Assembly: GCA_050952645.1 (NCBI GenBank) | Contig: JBMNLI010000007.1 | Coordinates: 102,433 to 166,432 of the forward strand | Source: Bdellovibrionota bacterium | Lineage (GTDB): Bacteria > Bdellovibrionota_C > UBA2361 > CAKMMH01 | Reading direction: 5' to 3' | DNA length: 64,000 bases | In this document: piece by piece, positions 16,216 to 59,504 of the stretch | Layout of the letters: the number at the start of each line of letters is the position of its first letter | How positions within the stretch are numbered: the stretch's first letter is position 1 | Translations under genes and position numbers: made by a program | Notes under the pieces: generated by a model | Databases searched by the model: none | What the model was told of the DNA's origin: nothing | What the model saw: only the letters and a program-made list of their open reading frames with translations

Positions 16216-16371
16216 TGTTCTTTACGTTTTAAGGAATTTACATAAAACAAATTGCTTTATATATAGCTATAATTTTAAAAAAATCTTTATTTAGCCGAAC
16301 ACTAAAGCCAATTTTCTTTTAAGCTAACAAAAAAACAATTTTTTTTCGGCTCACTTAAAACGTGAAGAGCC
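16216..16371. mobile_element. ISL3-like MITE copy (diverged)
   Basis: Ends TGTTCTTTACGTTTTAAGG and CACTTAAAACGTGAAGAGCC; interior homologous to 42507-42730. Confidence 0.75.
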
Positions 16372-17174: not shown

Positions 17175-17732
17175 ATGACTAGGAGATTTAAAAGAGAGAT
17201 AAAAGTTTCAAAAGATGGAGTTTTAGATACTTCAAATAGGCCTAATACATCGTCCGATAATTATTCTTATTACGTCCATTCTAAAGAGCGAGAATCATAC
17301 CAGCATAAAAAATCTGCTTGGGATCCTAGTCGCTCCTTTACTAATCAATACGAAGAAACGATAAGAAATAATATCGATAGCTTAACCTCATACACTAATA
17401 GCAATATAGATAGCAAAAGCGTATTCGGGGAAAATGTTTATGGGGGACAAGAGTTCGATATAGACAAAAGAATTTTAGGAAGCGATGACTTAGGGCGCAT
17501 GAATATCACTAAGGAAGAGTTAGATGATTTTCTAATTAAAAGAAGAAAACAAAATTCTTCACTATTAGCCCCCTTATTTAGTAGCAACTCTTATACACAT
17601 TTAAAAGTTAAAATTTTAATAATAATAGCAGGACTTTGCATTTTTGGAACTTTAATAGTTGGCGCTAAAACGACTAAGCATAGTAATTCCTTAACTTTTC
17701 AAAAAAGTTCACCTAAACAAATAATCAATTAA
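17175..17732 (+). CDS. Hypothetical protein with a C-terminal TM helix
   Basis: 185-aa ORF; ILIIIAGLCIFGTLIVG. Confidence 0.6.
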   Translation: MTRRFKREIKVSKDGVLDTSNRPNTSSDNYSYYVHSKERESYQHKKSAWDPSRSFTNQYEETIRNNIDSLTSYTNSNIDSKSVFGENVYGGQEFDIDKRILGSDDLGRMNITKEELDDFLIKRRKQNSSLLAPLFSSNSYTHLKVKILIIIAGLCIFGTLIVGAKTTKHSNSLTFQKSSPKQIIN

Positions 17733-17833
17733 AATAAATAAGAAATAATCGTTAAATTATGCATTTTTTTACTTGCATCTGTGTATTTACTATGCTATAC
17801 TTTTAGTGCAACCGTTAACCTAAAGGAGGTTTT

Positions 17834-19522
17834 ATGAATTACAATCGAACAGTTCCATTACCAGAGCAAAGAAATAAAATAATTATAAGAGAAAAAGGGG
17901 AAGCAAAATATGTGCTTTTTGAATACGATCGCACTTATAATAAAGAGAAACAGTATACTAATCCAAAGCGTAGCGTTATTGGAAAATTAGTTGATGGTAG
18001 AGATGATATTATGTACCCTAATGACAATTATAGTAATTATTTTCCAGATGCCCCTATGCCCGAGAAATTTTCAGACGCTTCACGCAGTTGTTGTCTTCGT
18101 ATAGGTCCCCACTTGGTGATTGAAAAAGTAGCAAATGAATTTAATTTGCCTTTTTTACTAAAAAAACATTTTGGTGAACGTAGTGAACTTATACTTGATT
18201 TAGCGAGTTATTTTATTGTAAATGAAGAGAATGTCAGTCAGTATTATCCAGACTACGCCTTTTCTCATCCACTCTTTACAAAAGGTATGCGCATCTATAG
18301 TGATTCTACCATAAGTCGTTTTCTTTCTTCTGTTAGCAAAGAGCAGATAATTAACTTTCTTGACGATTGGAACAAGGGAAAAGATCGCAATCAAATGGTT
18401 TACGTTTCATATGATTCGACTAATAAGAACTGTCAAGCAGGTGATGTTGAATTAGTAGAGTTTGGTAAAGCGAAAGACGAAAAAGGATTCCCAGTATTTA
18501 ATTTATCCATTGCCTTTGATCAAACGAATAGAGTTCCGTTATTTTACGAAGAGTATCCTGGTTCTATTACAGACGTTTCTCAATTTACTCATATGGCAGA
18601 TAAGGTTATAGAGTATGGATATAAAAAGATAGGATTTATTTTAGACCGTGGTTATTTTAGTAAATATAATATTCAATATATGGATAATAGTGGTTTTTCT
18701 TTTTTATTGATGGTAAAAGGGTGTAAGGCTTTAGTTTCTAAATTAGTAGAAGAAAACAGGAATACATTTGAGTCTAAAAGAGACTGTAGTATTCGCTTAT
18801 ACAAGGTATATGGCACTACAGTGAAATCAAAATTATATGATGATGATAGTAAGGAGCGTTATTTTCATGTTTATTTTAGTGCGGAAAAGCAAGCATTTGA
18901 GAGGGAGCAACTAGAAATTAAATTAGAGGAGTTTGAACAATTTTTAAAAAACCATATTGGCAAAGATACAAAGTTTGGACAAACGTATAAGCAATTTTTT
19001 GATTTAAGTTATGACAATCAAGGAAAGTTAAGAAAAGTAGAAGAGAGAGCAGATGAAATTCAAAAGGCTCTTAATTTATGTGGGTATTTTTGTCTTGTTA
19101 GTTCGGAAGAAATGAGTGCTAAAGAAGCTATAATACTTTACAAGGGTAGAGACGCAACTGAGAAACTTTTTGCTATTGATAAGACTTTTTTAGGCTCAAA
19201 AAGTATGAGAGTTCATTCATCTCAGGCAGTATCTGCTAAAATTTTTATAGAGTTTATAGCACTTATAATTCGCAATCGCATTTATATTCTACTTAATGAA
19301 GAACTTTCTAAGCTAACAAAAAAGCCAAACTATATGAATGTTCCTGCCGCATTAAAAGAACTTGAAAAAATTGAAATGGTAAGAGGGAGTAAGGATTTAT
19401 ATCAGCTGAGCTATGCAGTAAGCAAAAGACAAAAAACTATATTAAATGCGTTTGATATAGATGCTGATAAGGTAAGATTAAAAGCTGCTCAAATAAATAA
19501 AAAATTACAAAAAAAATTTTAG
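17834..19522 (+). mobile_element. IS1634-family DDE transposase
   Basis: 562 aa; YDSTN, ILDRGY, Y-x2-R-x3-E (YKGRDATEKLF); AAGGAGG RBS; element ends not resolved. Confidence 0.85.
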
Positions 19523-19791
19523 GTGAACTTTTTTGCAAAGTTAAGGTAATTATAAGCATGGCAATTATCAACGTGGCAATTATCAAGAAGAAAAGTACTA
19601 TTATAACGAGTATGATTTCTAAATCATAAAAATTAATTATCTTAAGATACGTGGGTTGAGTTTCAAGTAAAACTTTATTATTATTTTATCGTGGCTTTTA
19701 TAGCATCTTTTATGTTTTTTTTATATCATTTCTTATATCGTTTTATTTTTAAATAATTTATTTTTTTCATTTTAAAGGTAAAAAGTTTTTT

Positions 19792-23989: not shown

Positions 23990-24258
23990 GGTTCTTCACG
24001 TTTTAGGTGGGTTGAGCCAAGAAAATGTTATTCTATTTAATGAAGTCTTTGTGAAAGTTATCCACAGCTTGACATTTAGCTTTTAATTGCTAGGTCTTGC
24101 TATTAGTTATGGATAGCTTTTCCTAACACACCTTAATGTTTATTTTTCCTAATGAATTTAACTGTTGTTCTTTTAATAAAACAGTAACGGTTTTGGAATA
24201 TAATTTTGTCAATTTACATTAGAAGATAGACTCTAATCCACTCAAAACGTGAAGAATC
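23990..24258. mobile_element. ISL3-like non-autonomous element with a different interior
   Basis: GGTTCTTCACGTTTTAGGTGGGTT ... AATCCACTCAAAACGTGAAGAATC, 15 bp downstream of the tRNA. Confidence 0.7.
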
Positions 24259-24699: not shown

Positions 24700-24801
24700 A
24701 GTTCTTCACGTTTTAAGGTGGGTTTTAGACCTTAAAATTAGTATCACTCACGCACGAAGCAAAAAAACAATTTTTCTAACCCACCTAAAACGTGAAGAGC
24801 C
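24700..24801. mobile_element. ISL3-like MITE, short copy lacking the internal hairpin
   Basis: Both TIRs present; reads CACGAAGC directly into AAAAAAACAATTTTTCTAACC. Confidence 0.8.
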
Positions 24802-25769: not shown

Positions 25770-26005
25770 AAATTAAGTTTGTTTTTGCTTTTTCATATTT
25801 TTGAAATTATTTTTTTTAATTTAATTTTGGTAGATGATGTAAAAAAAATATAATAAAAAATTTTTGTTCTTCACGTTTTAGGTGGGTTAGCTTAAAAGAA
25901 AATTGGCTTTTATAGAAAACTATCTATAGTTTAAAGAAAAATTACAACTATACTTAAAGTAATTTATTTCATGCCAATTTCTTTAAAGTCAATTTTCTTT
26001 TGGGC

Positions 26006-27899
26006 GTGTGCCGGGCACGACATAGTTCTAGCGGGTGAAAGTCCCGTCACGGGTAGTTGTCACCAAGTGTAGTGATGCCACAAGCTCGAAGCAGTAATGT
26101 TAGAGTGAAGGAAGTGGCGGATCAAAACCAAGGAGCCTACGAACAGAAACCAGATACAAGGCTAAATGGTGGGTGAGGTTGCGCTACAAACCGAAGCCCT
26201 AAAGACAAACGTAAAACCAAACGAGTAAATCTGGAGGTTGTCTGGTGAAAGAACTATGCCTTACCCCGGGAGGTCCAGATAGCGTGCTATGCACGTGCGA
26301 TATAAAGCTTATATCTGGAAGTCAGTTGATACCATAGTACTTGAGACACCACTCAAGGAAGGGTTGAACGTTAATATATTGTGAATCACTGTAAGCAAGG
26401 CTAGAAGAGTCCGAAATTGAAGATATGCCTAACAAACAGGAACGTAACCTGTGGGGGCAGAAGATAGAGGGGGTGTTTTCTAGTAGCTTTACAAACAGAG
26501 GGAGGAGCAACAGGTGGAATTGATTGAACTAATTATATCAGACAAAAATATAGATGAGGCTATAAAGGCTGTTAAGCGAAATAAAGGTGCATCTGGTGTA
26601 GATGATATGCCAGTAGATGAGCTTGAAGACTATTTTGCCGTTCACAGAGAAGAGATAAAATCTCAGATACGTGAAGGGAATTATAAGCCGAGTCCAGTTA
26701 AGAGAGTGTATATACCTAAAGCTAATGGTAAGATGAGACCTTTAGGAATACCTACAGTAGTAGATAGGGTAATTCAACAAGCGGTAGCGCAAATACTAGC
26801 ACGCGGATACGAAAAGTATTTTAGTAATAGTAGCTATGGCTTTAGACCTAGAAGGAATTGCCATCTAGCAGTATATAGAACTCTTGAGTACTTGAAAAGA
26901 GGCTATGATTGGGTTATAGACCTAGACATAGAGAAATATTTTGATACTGTTAATCACGACAAATTAATTTCGATAATCAGGGAACGCATCAAAGATGCGA
27001 AGACACTACGATTGATAAGACAGTTCTTAAGAGCTGGTATAATGGAAGATGGATTGTTTACTGTAAGTGAGAAAGGAGTTCCGCAAGGAGGTCCATTATC
27101 CCCAGTATTATCTAACATATACCTTGATAAGCTCGACAAGGAACTGGAAGCAAGAGGACTTAAGTTTGTTAGATATGCCGATGACTGTAATATATTTGTT
27201 AGAAGTGAAAAGGCTGCTAATAGAGTAATGAAGTCCGTTGCGAGTTGGTTGGAGCGTAAGCTACGACTTAAAATTAATTCAAGTAAGAGTAAAATCTCTA
27301 GGCCGACGGAAAGCACTTTCTTAGGCTTTACCTACTGGAAGAGTGGGTATAAAACTTGGAAATGTAAACCTGCTGAAGATCGCAAACGAAAACTCTATGA
27401 TAAAACTAGAGAAATTCTTTGTAGACGGAAGGCAATGGCACGAACGTTAGGTTCGACATTTCAACAGCTAAGCTGGTTAATTAAAGGTTGGATAAACTAT
27501 TATAAGATAGGAACTCTTAAGACTTTTATAGATAAATATGGTCAATGGCTTAGACACAAAGTGAGGGTTATAATACTTAAACAGTGGAAATTGCCGAGAC
27601 GAATCTATCTAAATCTTAAGAAATTGAACCGAATGCTTGGTTGCAATTTTAGAAATGAAGAAATCTATAAGGTTGCTAACAGCAGACTCGGCTGGTATAG
27701 ACGCAGTTCGTGGTACGTAGTGAATTATGCATTAAGCCCTAAAATATTGGGGCGTAAAACAAAGGAACGAATTGGTTTAATCGACCCTTTGACGTATTAC
27801 CTGAGTATTACTTGATATTATATTAATGGAGCGCCGTATACGAGACCCGTACGTACGGTGCGACGGGAGGGAGAGGGTATAGCCCTCGCTCTACCCTAT
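26006..27899 (+). mobile_element. Group IIC intron, copy 1 (intact)
   Basis: 5' GTGTG, compact domain I resembling the O. iheyensis intron, D5 with CGC triad (GCGCCGTATACG...CGTACGGTGC), 3' CCCTAT; boundaries fixed by comparison with empty MITE copies. Confidence 0.92.
26514..27815 (+). CDS. ltrA: Group II intron reverse transcriptase/maturase, no endonuclease domain
   Basis: RPLGIP, GVPQGGPLSP, VRYADD, FLGF, GWINYY, KQWK; 433 aa. Confidence 0.95.
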   Translation: MELIELIISDKNIDEAIKAVKRNKGASGVDDMPVDELEDYFAVHREEIKSQIREGNYKPSPVKRVYIPKANGKMRPLGIPTVVDRVIQQAVAQILARGYEKYFSNSSYGFRPRRNCHLAVYRTLEYLKRGYDWVIDLDIEKYFDTVNHDKLISIIRERIKDAKTLRLIRQFLRAGIMEDGLFTVSEKGVPQGGPLSPVLSNIYLDKLDKELEARGLKFVRYADDCNIFVRSEKAANRVMKSVASWLERKLRLKINSSKSKISRPTESTFLGFTYWKSGYKTWKCKPAEDRKRKLYDKTREILCRRKAMARTLGSTFQQLSWLIKGWINYYKIGTLKTFIDKYGQWLRHKVRVIILKQWKLPRRIYLNLKKLNRMLGCNFRNEEIYKVANSRLGWYRRSSWYVVNYALSPKILGRKTKERIGLIDPLTYYLSIT

Positions 27900-27989
27900 T
27901 CCGTGGGGTGAGTGATACTAATTTTAAGGTCTAAAACCTACCTTAAAACGTGAAGAGCCAAGATTTTCTATTTAAAGGAAAATGAAATA

Positions 27990-28485
27990 GAGTAAGGAGG
28001 ATAGTCGCTTAAGTGTTTTTTACTCTTAAGAGGAAAGTCGGGACTTTATAGGACAAGGCTAGCTGCTAACGGCAGCTTTGAGCGATCAAAGGAAAGTGCT
28101 ACAGAAAAGGAAACCACCAAAAATTATTTTTTTGGAACGGATGAAAAGGTAAGGTAAAAGCTTACCAGCAAAAAGGAGACTTTTTGGCTTAGTAAACCCT
28201 AGCTAAAGCAAGACCAAAATAGAAAGTTTAAAATTATTGTAAGCTTTATAGCTTATTTTAATTTTAAAATGTTGTCCGCATTTTTAGAGTTCTTTTTTTA
28301 ATAGATTTATTGTGGCGTGTTTTAGATTTTAGTTTAAAATACAAATTTATTTAAAAAGAACTCTAGACTTTTTAGGTAGTGTCGCTTGAGCTTATCGGCA
28401 ACGATAAGTCTAGATGAATGACTATCACAATAAGTTTACTAAATAAAGTTTACTTATTTACAGAATCCCGCTTATATCCTTGCTC
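27990..28485 (+). ncRNA. rnpB: RNase P RNA (type A-like, about 500 nt)
   Basis: GAGGAAAGTC, GGAAAGTGCTACAGAAA, GCAAGACC, CTAGATGAATGAC, ACAGAA..GCTTA; P1 GAGTAAGGA/TCCTTGCTC. Confidence 0.92.
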
Positions 28486-28572
28486 TATTTGATTTTCTTT
28501 ATTTGATTTTCTTTAAAGTCTCTCTGTTTTTTTATTTTTTTTTGTGGTAGTCTTATAAAATATTTTATAAAT

Positions 28573-31289: not shown

Positions 31290-31301
31290 TCTTTAGCTTA
31301 A

Positions 31302-31382
31302 ATTTTTCTTTTAGGGCTTCGTTAGGGAGGAGGGGAAACGCTAATTTTAAGGCGTTAAACCATCTTAAAACATCAAAGAATT
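31302..31382. repeat. Degenerate MITE half
   Basis: TTTTCTTTTAGGGCTTCGT...CTAATTTTAAGG...CCATCTTAAAACATCAAAGAA matches the MITE segment that includes the empty intron target. Confidence 0.55.
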
Positions 31383-33967: not shown

Positions 33968-34181
33968 AGTTCTTCACTTTTAAAGGTAGGGAGGAAGCTC
34001 TTTAAAGATTAGCATTGCCTACCATAAAGCCTAAAAGAAAATTGACTTTAAGAAGTTTACATAAAATAAATTGCTTAAAATATGGCTATGATTTAAAAAA
34101 ATATAGCTAGTTTCAAGAGTCAACTTTTTTCAAGCTAACCTAAAAAACAATTTTTCTAACTCACTTAAAACGTGAAGAGCC
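33968..34181. mobile_element. ISL3-like MITE, full length, diverged, intron-free
   Basis: Both TIRs; flanks ATTTTTTT/ATTTTTTA. Confidence 0.8.
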
Positions 34182-37480: not shown

Positions 37481-37512
37481 GGTTCTTAAACCACCTTAAA
37501 GCGTGAAGAATT
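37481..37512. repeat. Minimal 32-bp MITE remnant
   Basis: GGTTCTT...CCACCTTAAAGCGTGAAGAATT flanked by a perfect TATTTTTT duplication. Confidence 0.65.
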
Positions 37513-38255: not shown

Positions 38256-41162
38256 TTATTCTTGTCTTTGTGGTTTTTGTTCCCATATTAGCATTTCGAT
38301 ATTTCCTTTAGGTATAATTCTTTTAAACATTTTATTAAGAATGTGAAAAATCTCTTTTTTATATCTATTTAAAACATATCTTGAAATTTTAGTTTCTTTT
38401 CTAATTTCTCTGTCTGATTTAATTTTATTACCAAATAATCCTAGGTAATAAATAATTAATTTTTGTTTAGTATTATTTAAAATGGGGAATACCTCTTTGC
38501 TCTTAGTCTTTAAAGTATCATTAGATATAAAATCATTTGAACACATAATTAAAAACTTATTTAAAGGATTTCGTGGAAATGTTTCGTATAATTTAAAAAC
38601 TAACTCTAGCGTATCGTAAATTAGTTTTTTATTTTGTAAGGAATTTTTATTATTTTCATCATAGTTTTCATTTTTTTCATTTCTAATTTTTCCTAATCTA
38701 AAGCTTCTATAAAAATTTTCTTTTTGAGCAGGAGAAAAGTCCTCTATGGCTTTTAATAACTCTTGCTTTAGCTCATAGTATGCATCTAAAGAGAGTGCTA
38801 TCTTACGTTCTTTTATCTCTCTATAACAAAGTTCATTTAAATAGTTTATATTTAATAAGTTTTCTAGTTTTTTAACGGAATATCTTCTTATCTTACCAAC
38901 TGTAGATTTATTAGGTAAAGATAACATATAGGCTAGCTTAGTTGAGCTTCTGATTTTTTTGTTAAAAAGTCCGAAAGCGTAAATAGTAATAATTAGATGT
39001 TCCTTACTAGGTAGCACGAAAACGGAATTTTCTAACACTTCTTTATATGTTAAATTTTCTTTTTCTAAAAAATCTTTTCTATATAAATAAAATAATTTAC
39101 TTTTCTCTTTTTTAGTAAAAACATTGTTTGCAAAAAGCTTTCGTTCGACTAATAAGTATTTTTCTAATGGCATATTTAATTTTTTAGCTATTTGCTTTGG
39201 AGTTAAATGTTTAATAAATTTTAATTTAAATATTTTTTTGTCCCTAGGTTTTTTTATTTTTGCTTCTAGAGCCTTTAAGAATTTTAAATCTAGGTGTGTT
39301 AGAGCAACCTTAAGTTCTCTTAAGGTAGAAACCGCTTTTTTGTATTCTTTGTCGTACGTTTGAGCGTCGATAGATAGCTTTTTAATAATATCTTCTTTCG
39401 ATAATTTTTCTGAAGTAGTAATTCCGTGTCTTAAATTTATAATTTCAAATTGTAGCGAAGATAACATAAAAAGAGCATTTGTTAAAAGGGCTTTTCTTAT
39501 AGTTCTGTCTTTAATGTTTGCCTTAAATATTTCGCAAAGTTTAAGGAATATTTCTGGCTCGTATTTTTCTAATTTTTCGATAACTCGTCTTTCAATCTCG
39601 ATAAGTTTTTTTATATCTATTTGCAGGTTGTTTGCGATATCGTGTAAATTTCTAACGATGCGATTTTTAAAATCATATCTACATTTTGCAAATGATATTT
39701 CTTCCTTTGTTAAAATAGAGTATAAATTATGTAGTGTAGGGTATCTATTTTTTTCTCTATAATTATCTTCAATAGTTAATGAAAGTTTTAATGCTTTATT
39801 AAACATTTTAGGGTCTTTTTTAAAGATTATTTCGAGTGATTTTAAAATACAACTATCTATAGACTCAATTTTTAGGCCGTAAGTATCGCATAGTTCAAAT
39901 CTAGATTGCTCTTTATCTCCATCTAAATCTCCATCTTTATTTCCATCTAAATCTCCATCTAATCCAAAATGTTTTGAGATAAGTTCAGGGATAAGTTTTG
40001 ATTCAATTTTAGCGACACGTTTTTCTACGCGTAATAACCCATTTTTAATTTCATTTTTTATATCCTTGATTTCATCTTGCGTAATAAAATAGTCTATAGC
40101 TACAGATATAAGTTGTAATTTCCCTAAAACTTTTCGTCTATGAAAATGTGCACTAGGTTCAAAATCTGCTACAAGATATTGATATTTATCTTCTCTATAA
40201 ATTTCGCAAGAACTTTCTATAATATATCTTTCTTTTCCGTAAGTATAATTTAAAAATTTATAGGCAAGCTTTGCCGTATTATCGGCTGTAGGGTCATGTT
40301 CATCATTAATTCTATTATAATAATTTATATTAGGATTGCCTAGTTGCGAAAAAGGAGTAGGAGAAAGTACGCTTCCTTTATCATTATCTAAATTTCGTAT
40401 TCCTTGATTTTTATTCCTATATATATCTATAATGACGAAAGGTATTCTATTATAAAGATAAGTTGAAAAAGATGAGTTTTTTTCATGGTCATAACTATTA
40501 ATTAATTCTACAACTTCTAAAAAAACACTAGGGTAAAGGTCTTCGAGGCTTTTGTTTAAATTATGTTTTTTGATATGTCTTAAGATTATATTTTTAATAA
40601 TCCGTTCGTATGGTTTTATTATATCGTTTCTTTTTTGTGCTACAAAATTGTAGCTATTAAGAATGTTAGATAGTGCTTCTAATTTTTCTTTTTCCGTATT
40701 AGTTTTATTTAAATTTTCAAAAGTTTTTTTTATTCTACCCATAATATTTGAATAAAAAAATTCATTTGCGTGATGCCTTAGTATTTTTATATCACTACTT
40801 TCTAAGAGAGGTGGCGTCTTAAAAGATGGATCAGAAATTCTTTCTAGTGCTTCTTGTAGTTCTTTAAGATCTTGTCCGCTAAGATTAGTAAAATTATCTG
40901 AAATATCGTGATTTTTAAAAGATGTATACTCCCTAATTAGAGAGATGATATAAGGGGTAGCTTCTTTACTATTAAAAAACTGTTTTTTAAAGTTTTCCAT
41001 TTCTTGCTTATAGGAACTTATAGCTTTTATAGTTCCCTTATTATCAGGGATTAGATTATCGCCACTAAAAGATGCGCCTCTAGAAGATGTAGGAGAGGGG
41101 GGGAGGGAATGCTTCCTAAAATCATCGTGTTGTCTTATTGTATTTTCTCTATTATGTATCAT
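38256..41162 (-). CDS. Giant sigma70-like protein: one region 2 plus 6-7 tandem region-4 HTH units
   Basis: EDLY...INSYDHEKNSSFSTYLYNRI region-2-like motif; repeated L(T/S/P)xxExxII..(F/Y/H)G...S/T..I...L units. Confidence 0.7.
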   Translation of the reverse strand: MIHNRENTIRQHDDFRKHSLPPSPTSSRGASFSGDNLIPDNKGTIKAISSYKQEMENFKKQFFNSKEATPYIISLIREYTSFKNHDISDNFTNLSGQDLKELQEALERISDPSFKTPPLLESSDIKILRHHANEFFYSNIMGRIKKTFENLNKTNTEKEKLEALSNILNSYNFVAQKRNDIIKPYERIIKNIILRHIKKHNLNKSLEDLYPSVFLEVVELINSYDHEKNSSFSTYLYNRIPFVIIDIYRNKNQGIRNLDNDKGSVLSPTPFSQLGNPNINYYNRINDEHDPTADNTAKLAYKFLNYTYGKERYIIESSCEIYREDKYQYLVADFEPSAHFHRRKVLGKLQLISVAIDYFITQDEIKDIKNEIKNGLLRVEKRVAKIESKLIPELISKHFGLDGDLDGNKDGDLDGDKEQSRFELCDTYGLKIESIDSCILKSLEIIFKKDPKMFNKALKLSLTIEDNYREKNRYPTLHNLYSILTKEEISFAKCRYDFKNRIVRNLHDIANNLQIDIKKLIEIERRVIEKLEKYEPEIFLKLCEIFKANIKDRTIRKALLTNALFMLSSLQFEIINLRHGITTSEKLSKEDIIKKLSIDAQTYDKEYKKAVSTLRELKVALTHLDLKFLKALEAKIKKPRDKKIFKLKFIKHLTPKQIAKKLNMPLEKYLLVERKLFANNVFTKKEKSKLFYLYRKDFLEKENLTYKEVLENSVFVLPSKEHLIITIYAFGLFNKKIRSSTKLAYMLSLPNKSTVGKIRRYSVKKLENLLNINYLNELCYREIKERKIALSLDAYYELKQELLKAIEDFSPAQKENFYRSFRLGKIRNEKNENYDENNKNSLQNKKLIYDTLELVFKLYETFPRNPLNKFLIMCSNDFISNDTLKTKSKEVFPILNNTKQKLIIYYLGLFGNKIKSDREIRKETKISRYVLNRYKKEIFHILNKMFKRIIPKGNIEMLIWEQKPQRQE

Positions 41163-41219: not shown

Positions 41220-42386
41220 CTAACTCTCATTTGTATTTAGTCTAAATTCTCTTAAGATAGAAACCGCATTTTTATATTCTTTGTAGTACGTTTGAGCGTC
41301 GATAGATAGCTTTTTAATAATATCTTCTTTTGATAATTTTTCTGAAGTAGTAATCCCACGTCTTAAATTTATAATTTCAAATTGTAGCGAAGATAACATA
41401 AAAAGAGCATTTTTTACAAAAGATCTTTTAATATTTTGGCTTTCAACATTAGCCTTAAATATTGCGCAAATCTTAGGGAATGTTTCTAGTTTATATTGTT
41501 TTAATTTTTCTATAACTCCTCTTTCAATTTCAATAAGTTCTGTTATATCTGTTTTTAAATCATTTGCGACTTGGTTTAAGTCTTTAAAGATTCTATTTTT
41601 CCAATCGTATCTACATTTTAAAAACCTAGATTCTTCTTCTGTTAAAATAGAGTATAAATTATGTGGCAAAGGGTAGCTATTTTCTTTTCTAAATTCATCT
41701 TCAATAGTTAGTGAAAATTTTAACGCTTTATAAAACATTTTAGGGTCTTTAGAAAAAGTTCCTTTAAGTGCATTAAAAATATAAGTATCTATCGTTTCAA
41801 TTTTAAGACCAAAATCTTCATATAACTCAGCTCTTGAATATTCTTCATTTCCATCTAAATCAAGGTGTTTCGATATGATTTTGCGATAATTCTTTGGTAT
41901 CGTTGGTAGTTTTTCTTTGATTTCATTTTTTATATCATTGATTTCATCTTGCGTAGGAGAATGGTTTATGGCTTCTGATATAAATTTTAATTTTTCGATG
42001 GTTATTTGATATATTTGGTGTGCACGTTGATTCGACATAATACCAAGCGACATATAATATTTATATTCGTTTTTTGCGTAAAATCCGCACGAAATTTGCA
42101 TAATATATTTTTCTTTAAACTTTAGTGCATGTTTCTGATAAGTCTCCACAATTTTTAAAGCTTCTTCGTCTGGTGGAAATTCGCTAGCGTAATTTCTCTT
42201 AGGAGTAGTAGGAAATTCAGTATCAGAAAGAACTAGCGGATTTTCAGAAAGAGAACCGTGTCTTAAAGTTGCATGAAAGGTAGGGAATAAATGCTTGCTA
42301 AGATCATCATAAGTCGCTACATTTCCCCCTTGCTTAATGTTTTTCTGTTCTGCTTGTCGTCCTCTCGGTTGTTCTACTACTTGCAT
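41220..42386 (-). CDS. Region-4-repeat protein, partial paralog of 38256-41162
   Basis: C-terminal ~240 aa align with the middle of the 968-aa protein; 41258-41410 is near-identical to 39328-39480. Confidence 0.75.
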   Translation of the reverse strand: MQVVEQPRGRQAEQKNIKQGGNVATYDDLSKHLFPTFHATLRHGSLSENPLVLSDTEFPTTPKRNYASEFPPDEEALKIVETYQKHALKFKEKYIMQISCGFYAKNEYKYYMSLGIMSNQRAHQIYQITIEKLKFISEAINHSPTQDEINDIKNEIKEKLPTIPKNYRKIISKHLDLDGNEEYSRAELYEDFGLKIETIDTYIFNALKGTFSKDPKMFYKALKFSLTIEDEFRKENSYPLPHNLYSILTEEESRFLKCRYDWKNRIFKDLNQVANDLKTDITELIEIERGVIEKLKQYKLETFPKICAIFKANVESQNIKRSFVKNALFMLSSLQFEIINLRRGITTSEKLSKEDIIKKLSIDAQTYYKEYKNAVSILREFRLNTNES

Positions 42387-43126
42387 TTATTTATCTTTTA
42401 AATCAAACGTTAGTTTTAATTACATTTAAACGTAATATTATACTCGTTAAATGCTTTTTATCAAAATTTTAAATTTTTTTTGCCTTAAATATATGCTTTA
42501 ATTTTAGGCTCTTCATGTTTTAAGATGGGTTTTAGACCTTAAGAATTAGTATCATCAACCTCACGAAGCCCAAAAGAAAATTGACTTTAAAGAAATTTGC
42601 ATAAAATAAATTACTTTAAATATAGTTGTAATTTTTCTTTAAACTATAGATAGTTTTCTATAAAAGCCAATTTTCTTTTAAGCTAACCCCTAAAAACAAT
42701 TTTTTCTAATCCACCTAAAACGTGAAAGAATTAAAAAACTTTATGCTCGCTCTTTCTTTTTCTTATTATCATCGTCCCTCTAAATTATTCTTTCACGTTT
42801 TTAAGATGGGTTTTAGACCTTAAGAATTAGTATCATCAACCTCACGAAGCCCAAAAGAAAATTGACTTTAAAGAAATTTGCATAAAATAATTACTTTAAA
42901 TATAGTTGTAATTTTTCTTTAAACTATAGATAGTTTTCTATAAAAGCCAATTTTCTTTTAAGCTAACGCCCTAAAAACAATTTTTCTAATCCACCTAAAA
43001 CGTGAAAGAATTAAAAAACTTTATGCTCGCTCTTTCTTTTTCTTATTATCATCGTCCTCTAAATTATTCTTTCACGTTTTAAGGTAGGTTTTAGACCTTA
43101 AGAATTAGTATCATCAACCTCACGAA

Positions 43127-45025
43127 ATAGGGTAGAGCGAGGGCTATACCCTCTCCCTCCCGTCGCACCGTACGTACGGGTCTCGTATACGGCGCTCCAT
43201 TAATATAATATCAAGTAATACTCAGGTAATACGTCAAAGGGTCGATTAAACCAATTCGTTCCTTTGTTTTACGCCCCAATATTTTAGGGCTTAATGCATA
43301 ATTCACTACGTACCCACGAACTGCGTCTATACCAGCCGAGTCTGCTGTTAGCAACCTTATAGATTTCTTCAATTTCTAAAATTGCAACCAAGCATTCGGT
43401 TCAATTTCTTAAGATTTAGATAGATTCGTCTCGGCAATTTCCACTGTTTAAGTATTATAACCCTCACTTTGTGTCTAAGCCATTGACCATATTTATCTAT
43501 AAAAGTCTTAAGAGTTCCTATCTTATAATAGTTTATCCAACCTTTAATTAACCAGCTTAGCTGTTGAAATTGTCGAACCTAACGTTCGTGCCATTGCCTT
43601 CCGTCTACAAAGAATTTCTCTAGTTTTATCATAGAGTTTTCGTTTGCGATCTTCAGCAGGTTTACATTTCCAAGTTTTATACCCACTCTTCCAGTAGGTA
43701 AAGCCTAAGAAAGTGCTTTCCGTCGGCCTAGAGATTTTACTCTTACTTGAATTAATTTTAAGTCGTAGCTTACGCTCCAACCAACTCGCAACGGACTTCA
43801 TTACTCTATTAGCAGCCTTTTCACTTCTAACAAATATATTACAGTCATCGGCATATCTAACAAACTTAAGTCCTCTTGCTTCCAGTTCCTTGTCGAGCTT
43901 ATCAAGGTATATGTTAGATAATACTGGGGATAATGGACCTCCTTGCGGAACTCCTTTCTCACTTACAGTAAACAATCCATCTTCCATTATACCAGCTCTT
44001 AAGAACTGTCTTATCAATCGTAGTGTCTTCGCATCTTTGATGCGTTCCCTGATTATCGAAATTAATTTGTCGTGATTAACAGTATCAAAATATTTCTCTA
44101 TGTCTAGGTCTATAACCCAATCATAGCCTCTTTTCAAGTACTCAAGAGTTCTATATACTGCTAGATGGCAATTCCTTCTAGGTCTAAAGCCATAGCTACT
44201 ATTACTAAAAATACTTTTCGTATCCGCGTGCTAGTATTTGCGCTACCGCTTGTTGAATTACCCTATCTACTACTGTAGGTATTCCTAAAGGTCTCATCTT
44301 ACCATTAGCTTTAGGTATATACACTCTCTTAACTGGACTCGGCTTATAATTCCCTTCACGTATCTGAGATTTTATCTCTTCTCTGTGAACGGCAAAATAG
44401 TCTTCAAGCTCATCTACTGGCATATCATCTACACCAGATGCACCTTTATTTCGCTTAACAGCCTTTATAGCCTCATCTATATTTTTGTCTGATATAATTA
44501 GTTCAATCAATTCCACCTGTTGCTCCTCCCTCTGTTTGTAAAGCTACTAGAAAACACCCCCTCTATCTTCTGCCCCCACAGGTTACGTTCCTGTTTGTTA
44601 GGCATATCTTCAATTTCGGACTCTTCTAGCCTTGCTTACAGTGATTCACAATATATTAACGTTCAACCCTTCCTTGAGTGGTGTCTCAAGTACTATGGTA
44701 TCAACTGACTTCCAGATATAAGCTTTATATCGCACGTGCATAGCACGCTATCTGGACCTCCCGGGGTAAGGCATAGTTCTTTCACCAGACAACCTCCAGA
44801 TTTACTCGTTTGGTTTTACGTTTGTCTTTAGGGCTTCGGTTTGTAGCGCAACCTCACCCACCATTTAGCCTTGTATCTGGTTTCTGTTCGTAGGCTCCTT
44901 GGTTTTGATCCGCCACTTCCTTCACTCTAAACATTACTGCTTCGAGCTTGTGGCATCACTACACTTGGTGACAACTACCCGTGACGGGACTTTCACCCGC
45001 TAGAACTATGTCGTGCCCGGCACAC
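43127..45025 (-). mobile_element. Group IIC intron, copy 2
   Basis: Reverse complement of 26006-27899 with five single-base insertions. Confidence 0.92.
43211..44516 (-). pseudogene. ltrA: Intron RT/maturase with four +1 frameshifts (possibly sequencing error)
   Basis: Fragments match copy 1; extra bases near 44207, 43571, 43371 and 43313 each lengthen an existing base or run. Confidence 0.8.
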
Positions 45026-45314
45026 GCCCAAAAGAAAATTGACTTTAAAGAAATTTGCATAAAATAAATTACTTTAAATATAGTTGTAATTTTTCTTTAA
45101 ACTATAGATAGTTTTCTATAAAAGCCAATTTTCTTTTAAGCTAACCCCTAAAAACAATTTTTCTAACCCACCTAAAACGTGAAGAACCTAATTTTATTAG
45201 TATTTTTGATTAGTATCTTGCGATGATTTGTAAAGTATTTTAACATTTTCAATGTTTAAAGGTTTATTCGAGGATAAATTCAAAGACGAGTTTAAAGATT
45301 TTTAAGGAGCGTAT

Positions 45315-58738: not shown

Positions 58739-59504
58739 CTAGCTTCTAGGTGCCGAAGAATAATTGCTAGACTTACTAGACAATGAAGAGCCACTAAATA
58801 AAGAACCGCTAGAAATACTAGATACAGATGATATAACACTACTTAAACTACCAAAAGAAAATTGACTTTAAAGAAATTTGCATAAAATAAATTACTTTAA
58901 ATATAGTTGTAATTTTTCTTTAAACTATAGATAGTTTTCTATAAAAGCCAATTTTCTTTTAAGCTAACCCCCAAAAACAATTTTTCTAACCCACCTAAAA
59001 CGTGAAGAAGCAATTAAAATACCATACTTAGCTATACACGGCTCCTCTCTTAACTCAAAATATTTAAAGCCTAGTTGCTTAGGCGTCGCTACCTTTTTCG
59101 ATAATGCTAAATTATAAGCCGTAATCCAAAATTTACATATAGTAGGACAATCTTTAGATAGAGCTTGCACCTCATGCACTTCGCACACTTCATCTATTTC
59201 ACTTCAAGTCTTCCCCCTTATAGACTCACAATTAGGAACATCTTCCTTTCTTAAACCGTCTAGGCGATACTCTCTTAAAGCTACCATAAAATAAGGTGAA
59301 ACATCGACTACAAATTGCACTGGCCTATTTTCTACAGCTATTAACAAGTCTAAATTTCTCTCATTTAAACATACCATATGAAAAACAAATACGAAAACAT
59401 GCGTCACTACCCATGTAAGTGCAAAATAATAAAAACAAACTATAGCCTGTTTCTGTTAAAACGCTACCACGACTCGAATGGGACTTTTTATATTTATTTT
59501 TCAT
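58739..59504 (-). pseudogene. TadE-like pseudopilin gene, frameshifted and interrupted by a MITE
   Basis: Basic leader then RG|SVLTE plus hydrophobic helix; continues in ORFs 59204-59407 and 58964-59188; Ser-rich open frame beyond the MITE (link inferred). Confidence 0.4.
58851..59011. mobile_element. Truncated MITE (internal hairpin plus one TIR)
   Basis: Near-identical to 45028-45188. Confidence 0.88.

Follow-up and report, generated by a model that had tools for sequence, protein, structure and literature searches.

Two intron copies interrupt the same MITE family

The window, that is, the whole stretch of 64,000 nucleotides of DNA that was analysed, contains two copies of a group IIC intron, one on each strand, each of which interrupts a member of the same repeat family at TTTTGGGC^T(T/C)CGTG, corresponding to GGGC^T in a MITE (Table 1). 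An earlier note on this DNA had placed both introns in one repeat family and had seen no substitutions between them. Indeed, the two align with 0 substitutions and are told apart by 5 one-base insertions, all in copy 2; the insertions, which break its open reading frame (ORF), look like homopolymer errors of long-read sequencing. The near identity of the copies suggests that the intron may be active in splicing and retrohoming.

The assignment to class C, also made in the earlier note, is borne out by the features of domains V and VI, by the class of the encoded reverse transcriptase (RT) and by the RT tree described below. The Rfam models D1-D4-3 and DV/DVI match both window introns, the short domain I matches RF02001, and the RNA carries the 5′ GUGYG and 3′ AY ends as well as an AGGAA motif near 26109. 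A CGC triad, a shortened domain V and AGGAA are marks of class C in the available sections of Toor 2006 (PMC1702495). Taken together, the termini, DV/DVI, the CGC triad, an EBS1-IBS1 pairing of 3-4 bp, the RT and a predicted stem upstream of the insertion site are all those of a class C intron. The top PDB matches of the RT/maturase are the E. rectale IIC maturase (7uim) and the GsI-IIC RT (6ar1).

Table 1. Features of the two intron-bearing loci and of neighboring MITE copies, in window coordinates
Feature	Position	Strand	Remarks
Left 8-bp target-site duplication, host MITE 1	25857..25864	+	1 mismatch vs right copy
Left terminal inverted repeat (TIR), host MITE 1	25865..25886	+	ISL3-type, 22 bp
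Empty mirror target site AAGC^T in host MITE 1	25889..25893	-	Equivalent site filled in 3 other genome copies
Predicted branched DNA hairpin, 108 nt	25894..26001	.	17-bp basal stem, arms 25894-25910 / 25985-26001
IBS1 (GGGC)	26002..26005	+	3/4 predicted pairs with EBS1, including a G-U wobble
Group IIC intron copy 1	26006..27899	+	1894 nt, ends GTGTG...CCTAT
EBS1 (GCUA), in loop of hairpin 26177-26192	26183..26186	+	Covariation with 5′ exon, 38 related sites
Intron-encoded RT/maturase	26514..27815	+	433 aa, YADD; TIGR04416, 410 bits
Domain V and domain VI	27831..27899	+	CGC triad 27832-27834, short distal stem; bulged A in domain VI
Right part of host MITE 1	27900..27959	+	Right TIR 27938-27959
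Right 8-bp target-site duplication, host MITE 1	27960..27967	+	
Degenerate MITE right-end fragment	31300..31382	+	Start approximate; empty junction 31317/31318; hairpin left arm missing
8-bp target-site duplication closing three-unit MITE array	42499..42506	-	Exact
Empty MITE unit 3	42507..42732	-	Empty site 42568/42567
Empty MITE unit 2	42790..43012	-	Empty site 42849/42848; approximate lower end
Right part of host MITE 2 (unit 1)	43065..43126	-	
Group IIC intron copy 2	43127..45025	-	1899 nt; single-base insertions shift the reading frame of the ORF
Left part of host MITE 2	45026..45188	-	Hairpin, IBS1 GGGC 45029-45026, left TIR 45188-45167
8-bp target-site duplication opening the array	45189..45196	-	Exact

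The insertion site lies at the 3′ base of a hairpin, previously put at ~115 nt, whose predicted length in host MITE 1 is 108 nt; its DNA fold has a free energy of -19.8 kcal/mol (z -4.4), and 0/200 shuffled sequences fold as well. T27900 is probably the IBS3 of copy 1. The two hosts had been described as differing at several positions, and they are separated by 9 substitutions and 26 gap columns. Among the empty targets proposed before, the one at 42848 is exact, the one given as 42557 is off by 10 nt, and the degenerate one at 31317 lies in a fragment that has lost the left arm of the hairpin.

Host MITE 2 is one of three MITE units at 42499-45196, which are separated by ~52-bp spacers, have degenerate inner ends and are enclosed together by one exact 8-bp duplication; arrays resembling this one occur on C9, C10, C12 and C17. 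Further family members or ends are present in the window at 16216-16371, 23990-24258, 24700-24801, 33968-34181, 37491-37512 and ~58851-59011, and the 269-bp one among these begins 18 nt past a tRNA gene. A class A RNase P RNA (27989-28490), with an apparent long AT-rich insertion at ~28245-28350, starts 30 nt past host MITE 1. Downstream of the array, ORFs of 968 aa and 388 aa (38256-41162 and 41220-42386 (-)) have weak sigma-70-like matches at several places and possibly encode multi-domain sigma-like regulators.

Nine of ten genomic copies reside in the MITE family

The genome contains a total of 10 near-identical intron copies, 9 of which are in the MITE family. Five occupy the forward site GGGC^T, and three occupy a mirror site, AAGC^T, on the opposite strand of the same MITE inverted repeat. 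Another copy, at AGGC^T, occupies a single unit of a tandemly repeated MITE variant with a short hairpin, and the last lies outside the family at TAGC^A, after an 8-bp terminator-like hairpin between convergent ORFs. Every one of the 10 sites is intergenic and reads RGC^(T/A), with a predicted stem that ends 0-2 nt before IBS1. The mirror site and the 8 further copies go beyond what the earlier note described, and its view of the MITE as a landing site holds for the genome as a whole: the family is de facto the main landing site, and just 1/10 copies follows an ordinary terminator-like hairpin.

Eight of the ten copies are on the G-rich strand (P 0.055), the exceptions being window copy 2 and the C12 copy; such a tendency has been reported for class C introns (Miura 2022, PMC8919778, in the part available). 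Likewise, site choice tracks skew in 7/9 MITE hosts (P 0.09). A synonymous A/G variant at window position 26531 (intron position 526) distinguishes the two groups of sites, with G in 3/3 mirror-site copies and 0/7 others.

An IS1634-family element (NF033559; window 17688-19548, ORF 17834-19522 (+)) has 8 near-identical copies in the genome, one of which lies inside the intron copy at G000:C10:108630-112386 and is flanked by what appears to be a duplication of 5 bp. The result is a three-level nesting at C10, with an IS in an intron in a MITE, and the same insertion point is seen in sequencing runs X2 and X4, which are introduced below.

The MITE family is related to an ISL3 element

The 22-bp TIRs of the MITE family are identical or nearly so to the ends of an ISL3 element at C10:339480-341339 (L019:801-2660; 1860 bp), the only full-length ISL3 found in the genome. 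This element matches PF01610 and NF033550 above cut-off and is flanked by an exact 8-bp duplication, and its transposase gene has one frameshift near the start in the assembly. Exact 8-bp duplications surround 18/81 TIR pairs, compared with a mean of 0.76 and a maximum of 4 in shuffled data, whereas duplications of 6, 7, 9 or 10 bp are exact in only 0-4 pairs; these exact duplications suggest that the family moved in the past. The family is modular: its forms measure roughly 104 bp, without a hairpin, 160 bp and 222 bp, with hairpins of 44 nt and 108 nt, respectively, and 270 bp, the last derived from the ISL3 right end. Its 40 long copies and shorter forms, all without transposase, make up 1.1% of the genome. 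The shared ISL3 ends, the 8-bp duplications and the short multi-copy form agree with the earlier description of the repeat as a non-autonomous transposon.

Outside this genome, MITE DNA gave weak matches of 26-61 nt in only 2/40 related genomes, and no ISL3 transposase was found in 3 genomes of the taxonomic family of the host. A simple terminator scan of 42300-43200 returned 0 hits, so that the MITE does not register there as a classical terminator. Promoter-like hexamers are weakly elevated in the MITE (6 vs 2.9 +/- 1.6 in shuffles) and sit on both strands. MITE variants carrying 'GGGCGTGTGG' were considered as intron scars and rejected, as their sequence continues as normal MITE. A dispersed repeat of ~800 bp carries the same MITE insertion at C6 and C12 (G000:C6:22941-25632, C12:89013-89810), and partly at C7 and C14, with the intron in C6 only; in silico removal of the C6 MITE restored no single continuous ORF.

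Exon recognition follows the habit of related introns

Related introns were collected at 160 loci, of which the 51 closest were analysed. A 5′ end could be called in 41, and 38 were kept after dropping L114 (3-nt flank), L118 (54-nt flank, with a hairpin) and L132 (doubtful start, no hairpin). These 38 sites are not independent, since 15 come from two genomes. Across them, the 4 bases that follow the loop sequence UGC covary with the end of the 5′ exon, and this covariation identifies EBS1 of the present intron as GCUA, in agreement with the earlier note.

The earlier note had also reasoned that a pairing of 3 out of 4 positions means that structure probably dominates targeting. This argument is not supported, because such a pairing is normal for the clade: at least one mismatch occurs in 15/38 related sites, and a mismatch at -4 in 13/38. 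Toor 2006 (PMC1702495), in the sections available, likewise gives 3-4 bp as the normal EBS1-IBS1 pairing of class C. Sequence and structure both appear to count, since all 10 sites keep RGC at -3..-1. Moreover, EBS1 is the perfect complement of the non-MITE site TAGC, whereas all 9 MITE sites pair at 3/4 positions with the mismatch at -4; EBS1 thus gives no sign of tuning to the MITE.

All 38 retained sites have a hairpin that ends 0-5 nt before IBS1. These hairpins are 24-40 nt wide (5th-95th percentile), compared with 108-111 nt in the long MITE. The 9 sites from Lactimicrobium massiliense and 6 from Allobaculum all differ in sequence, and the close relatives at the 38 sites do not reside in one repeat family; the hairpins are short and unrelated. 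Targeting of a MITE therefore does not appear to be a property of the lineage, as had been supposed. In Allobaculum stercoricanis, six copies of one IIC intron (L031-L034, L040, L043) carry three EBS1 sequences that match their exons, whereas EBS1 is identical in all 10 copies of the present genome.

Site supply probably accounts for most of the pattern

The distribution of copies is probably explained by an ordinary terminator-type IIC intron that has repeatedly retrohomed into an ISL3-type MITE, because this family supplies most of the sites that match the predicted rule of the intron: a DNA stem of at least ~10 bp that is followed by RGC and next by T or A. After removal of the intron copies, the genome was scanned for RGC^(T/A) accompanied by a T-rich run and by a stem whose end lay no more than 5 nt away. 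This yielded 12,492 candidates, to which five thresholds were applied; the two strictest capture only 8 of the 10 real sites, and the rule was fitted partly on the same 10 sites that it is used to judge. Depending on the threshold, the share of the MITE family is 30-72% when every passing site is counted and 56-80% (109/195 to 79/99) when the count is restricted to intergenic sites. The probability that 9 or more of 10 copies fall in the MITE is then 0.027-0.37 for intergenic sites and 1.5e-4 to 0.18 for all sites, so that the preference for a MITE pad proposed in the earlier note finds no clear excess over supply among intergenic sites. Outside the family, short strong-hairpin sites amount to 9/37, and 1/9 of these is filled, vs 9/104 family sites. 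Site supply probably explains most of the MITE pattern, with room for a modest true preference. The stem itself seems to matter: MITE junctions with an intact hairpin are filled in 5/35 cases, vs 0/26 without (P 0.055), or in 6/36 vs 0/26 when a C10 unit missed by the pattern is counted (P 0.032), which favours a requirement for the hairpin stem at the target.

An evolved preference for the long branched hairpin of the MITE, over and above supply, appears unlikely to us, even though several observations point in its direction. Nine of ten copies have entered 1.1% of the genome; under loose thresholds that include genic sites, 9/10 is well above supply (P 1.5e-4 to 0.01); 8/40 long-hairpin elements are filled vs 1 short-hairpin unit; the U at position 3 of EBS1 is able to pair at both MITE sites; and the same junction recurs in three other studies. 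These observations are offset by the little or no enrichment among intergenic sites, by an EBS1 that fits the non-MITE site perfectly and is mismatched at -4 in all 9 MITE sites, and by the short hairpins used by relatives, including the sister intron L036.

Certain observations also run against the supply explanation. The long hairpin takes 8/9 MITE insertions although its 108-111 nt are outside the 24-40 nt range of the relatives, and the predicted forward-strand fold would bury IBS1 in G-T pairs. The strand bias is weak (P 0.055), with two copies contrary to it. Finally, independent homing leaves unexplained why 526G is found in 3/3 mirror copies and 0/7 others.

The following mechanism can be envisaged. 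The intron RNP would reverse-splice into single-stranded DNA, mostly the lagging-strand template, as published IIC work leads us to expect. EBS1 GCU would pair with RGC, and EBS3, which we take to be A26224 from the spacing familiar in other IIC introns, would pair with the +1 T. Because the U of EBS1 pairs with A or G, both MITE strands would be usable, and because the inverted repeat is two-sided, a MITE inserted in either orientation would present one of its sites on the lagging-strand template. The maturase would grip the AT-rich basal stem of the MITE by shape. In the available text on the E. rectale maturase, the thumb and the DNA-binding domain hold a stem of ~12 bp, and the single strand beside it is paired by EBS1 and EBS3 (Chung 2022, PMC10190682); the basal stem of the MITE, with RGC^T next to it on both strands, fits this arrangement. 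The MITE would serve as a passive target, with the intron arriving after it has landed.

Intron insertion probably followed MITE insertion

Among the 40 long MITEs, the 8 filled ones require 8 independent gains on a MITE history with a rough bootstrap, and 200/200 label shuffles give a number as low. The filled hosts differ by 6-30 substitutions, and their introns are 0-2 substitutions from the reference. In addition, the C6 host MITE corresponds to an intron-free paralogue in C12 that shares its flanks (799 bp, 97.4%). The unclustered gains and the empty C12 twin indicate that the MITEs had probably landed before the intron homed into them. They bear out the independent recent insertions envisaged in the earlier note and speak against its suggestion that the intron was carried along by a moving MITE. 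Among filled MITEs, no sister MITE-plus-intron haplotypes were found at different loci. Tandem arrays with one filled unit (C7, C10, C17) fit a late arrival of the intron but do not prove it, because unequal crossover could copy only the empty part.

Four sequencing runs, from four other studies (X2, X3, X4 and X8), were examined for the MITE-intron junction. Contigs from X2, X4 and X8 cross the forward 5′ junction by 82, 114 and 21 letters, respectively, the last being below the 31-letter bar for bridging. The X3 intron contig starts at GGC and continues into the MITE at its 3′ end. There are 15 letter differences in the X8 intron, the runs contain empty junctions as well, and X3 and X8 both carry 526G together with forward-type 5′ exons. 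The runs probably represent close strains, because the IS insertion occupies the same intron position in X2 and X4.

Dispersal in two tiers seems quite unlikely. Here, the ISL3 MITE and the intron would act together: a transposase would seed long two-sided hairpins that are favoured by the intron above terminators, the MITE would transcribe the intron, and the 2.1-kb composite would sometimes move. Transcription from the MITE would be expected because it is a non-terminator with promoter-like hexamers on both strands. If this arrangement were real, then a usually silent IIC landing site would become a launch pad.

We consider it very improbable that part of the spread of the intron took a DNA route, either because an ISL3 transposase moved MITE and intron as a 2.1-kb unit or because recombination between MITEs copied the intron. 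Although seven filled elements keep both TIRs within ~2.1 kb and the genome has an ISL3 of 1860 bp whose ends match theirs, sister pairs are missing among the filled MITEs, the only ISL3 found is frameshifted near its start, and the C6/C12 pair points to an intron that arrived after the MITE. The 526G common to the 3 mirror-site copies would also fit this route, but their hosts differ by 8-28 substitutions, one belonging to another subfamily, and X3 and X8 combine 526G with forward-type exons. An assembly artefact, in which one segment was duplicated or misjoined, can be set aside as extremely improbable: the introns are near-identical, one-base indels betray sequencing error and polishing may have homogenised copies, but the ten loci have different, unique flanks, lie on two strands and have distinct host haplotypes, and recurrence of the junction in three other studies, once with the variant intron of 15 letter differences, makes misassembly unlikely.

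Comparison with known systems

The intron resembles terminator-type IIC introns (B.h.I1, the E. rectale intron and GsI-IIC) in its GUGYG start, AGGAA motif, CGC triad, short domain V, 3-4 bp EBS1-IBS1 pairing, DNA stem immediately before IBS1, predominance of T at +1, RT of En-minus size and lagging-template tendency. It differs from them in that 9/10 targets are in a MITE, with one site per strand per element, and in that the main target is a predicted three-way hairpin of 108-111 nt with an AT-rich basal stem of 12-18 bp (predicted) rather than a ~12-bp stem with a terminal loop. If this predicted branched structure of 108 nt is the real substrate, then IIC maturases would need the basal stem only, with no nearby terminal loop, which would extend the 12-bp stem-loop model derived from the E. 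rectale structure.

IIC-attC introns constitute a specialised RT clade. Unlike them, the present intron has an RT placed among terminator-type relatives, as judged against 2 integron-associated references in a quick tree. Like them, it uses a target hairpin that is part of a different mobile system (Zimmerly and Semper 2015, PMC4424553, as far as its available part describes them). The MITE, in turn, is like an ISL3-derived MITE of Microcystis aeruginosa, whose ends begin with GGCTCTTC and are common to an ISL3 transposase element, and which has 8-nt target duplications and an internal stem-loop; unlike that MITE, for which the available text describes no intron (PMC11448079), the present one is intron-bearing, modular and found in tandem arrays. 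Non-C group II introns in IS elements are also nested in mobile DNA and avoid host genes, although they home by longer sequence pairing, and the same source, in its available part, notes no more than a slight preference of class C for mobile elements (Waldern 2020, PMC7306698).

Toor 2006 (PMC1702495, available sections) places IIC introns after terminators 'or other inverted repeats', and the targets of IIC introns given in reviews, in the portions available, are terminators and attC sites (PMC4424553, PMC12584367, PMC7306698). The available portions of PMC8643678, PMC2828477, PMC6542083 and PMC11602168 contain nothing on MITE targets for IIC introns, and a literature search, with most subscription papers and supplements outside its scope, found no published class C intron inside a MITE. 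The case illustrates that the places to which a class C intron spreads, and perhaps the extent of its spread, can be determined by a non-autonomous transposon, here in a low-GC genome with few suitable terminators and with the known rule of the intron unaltered. The genome amounts to a natural target library of ~100 sites on both strands, with long and short hairpins and with hairpin-less controls that were never hit.

Origin of the intron

A quick RT tree of 40 rows, with SH-aLRT support only and with 2/41 loci dropped because they had no long YADD/FADD frame, provides the phylogenetic check suggested in the earlier note. The RT falls inside a Bacillota clade with a support of 100. The clade also contains 12 RTs that were checked to be of terminator type and that come from Erysipelotrichaceae, Clostridia and metagenome contigs; the sister of the present RT is L036 from Erysipelotrichaceae (77% aa, 78% nt identity). 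The two integron-associated RTs group together and apart from it, which places the intron outside the IIC-attC introns.

The intron is 41% GC in a genome of ~31% GC. Its DNA gave one weak match of 106 nt in 40 related genomes, and its 5′ end gave 0 matches in viral contigs. A search for the RT in 90 further genomes of the order gave class C-like RTs in 9 of them, with identities of 36-50% and no close match; these metagenome-assembled genomes (MAGs) are incomplete, so the RT is better described as not found in the order than as absent. The GC contrast and the lack of a substantial match in the 40 related genomes suggest that the intron arrived recently by horizontal transfer, likely from a Bacillota host. 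A 19-nt piece that matches the 3′ end of L036 occurs among the loose ends of run X4, a weak hint that introns of the donor type share a habitat with this genome.
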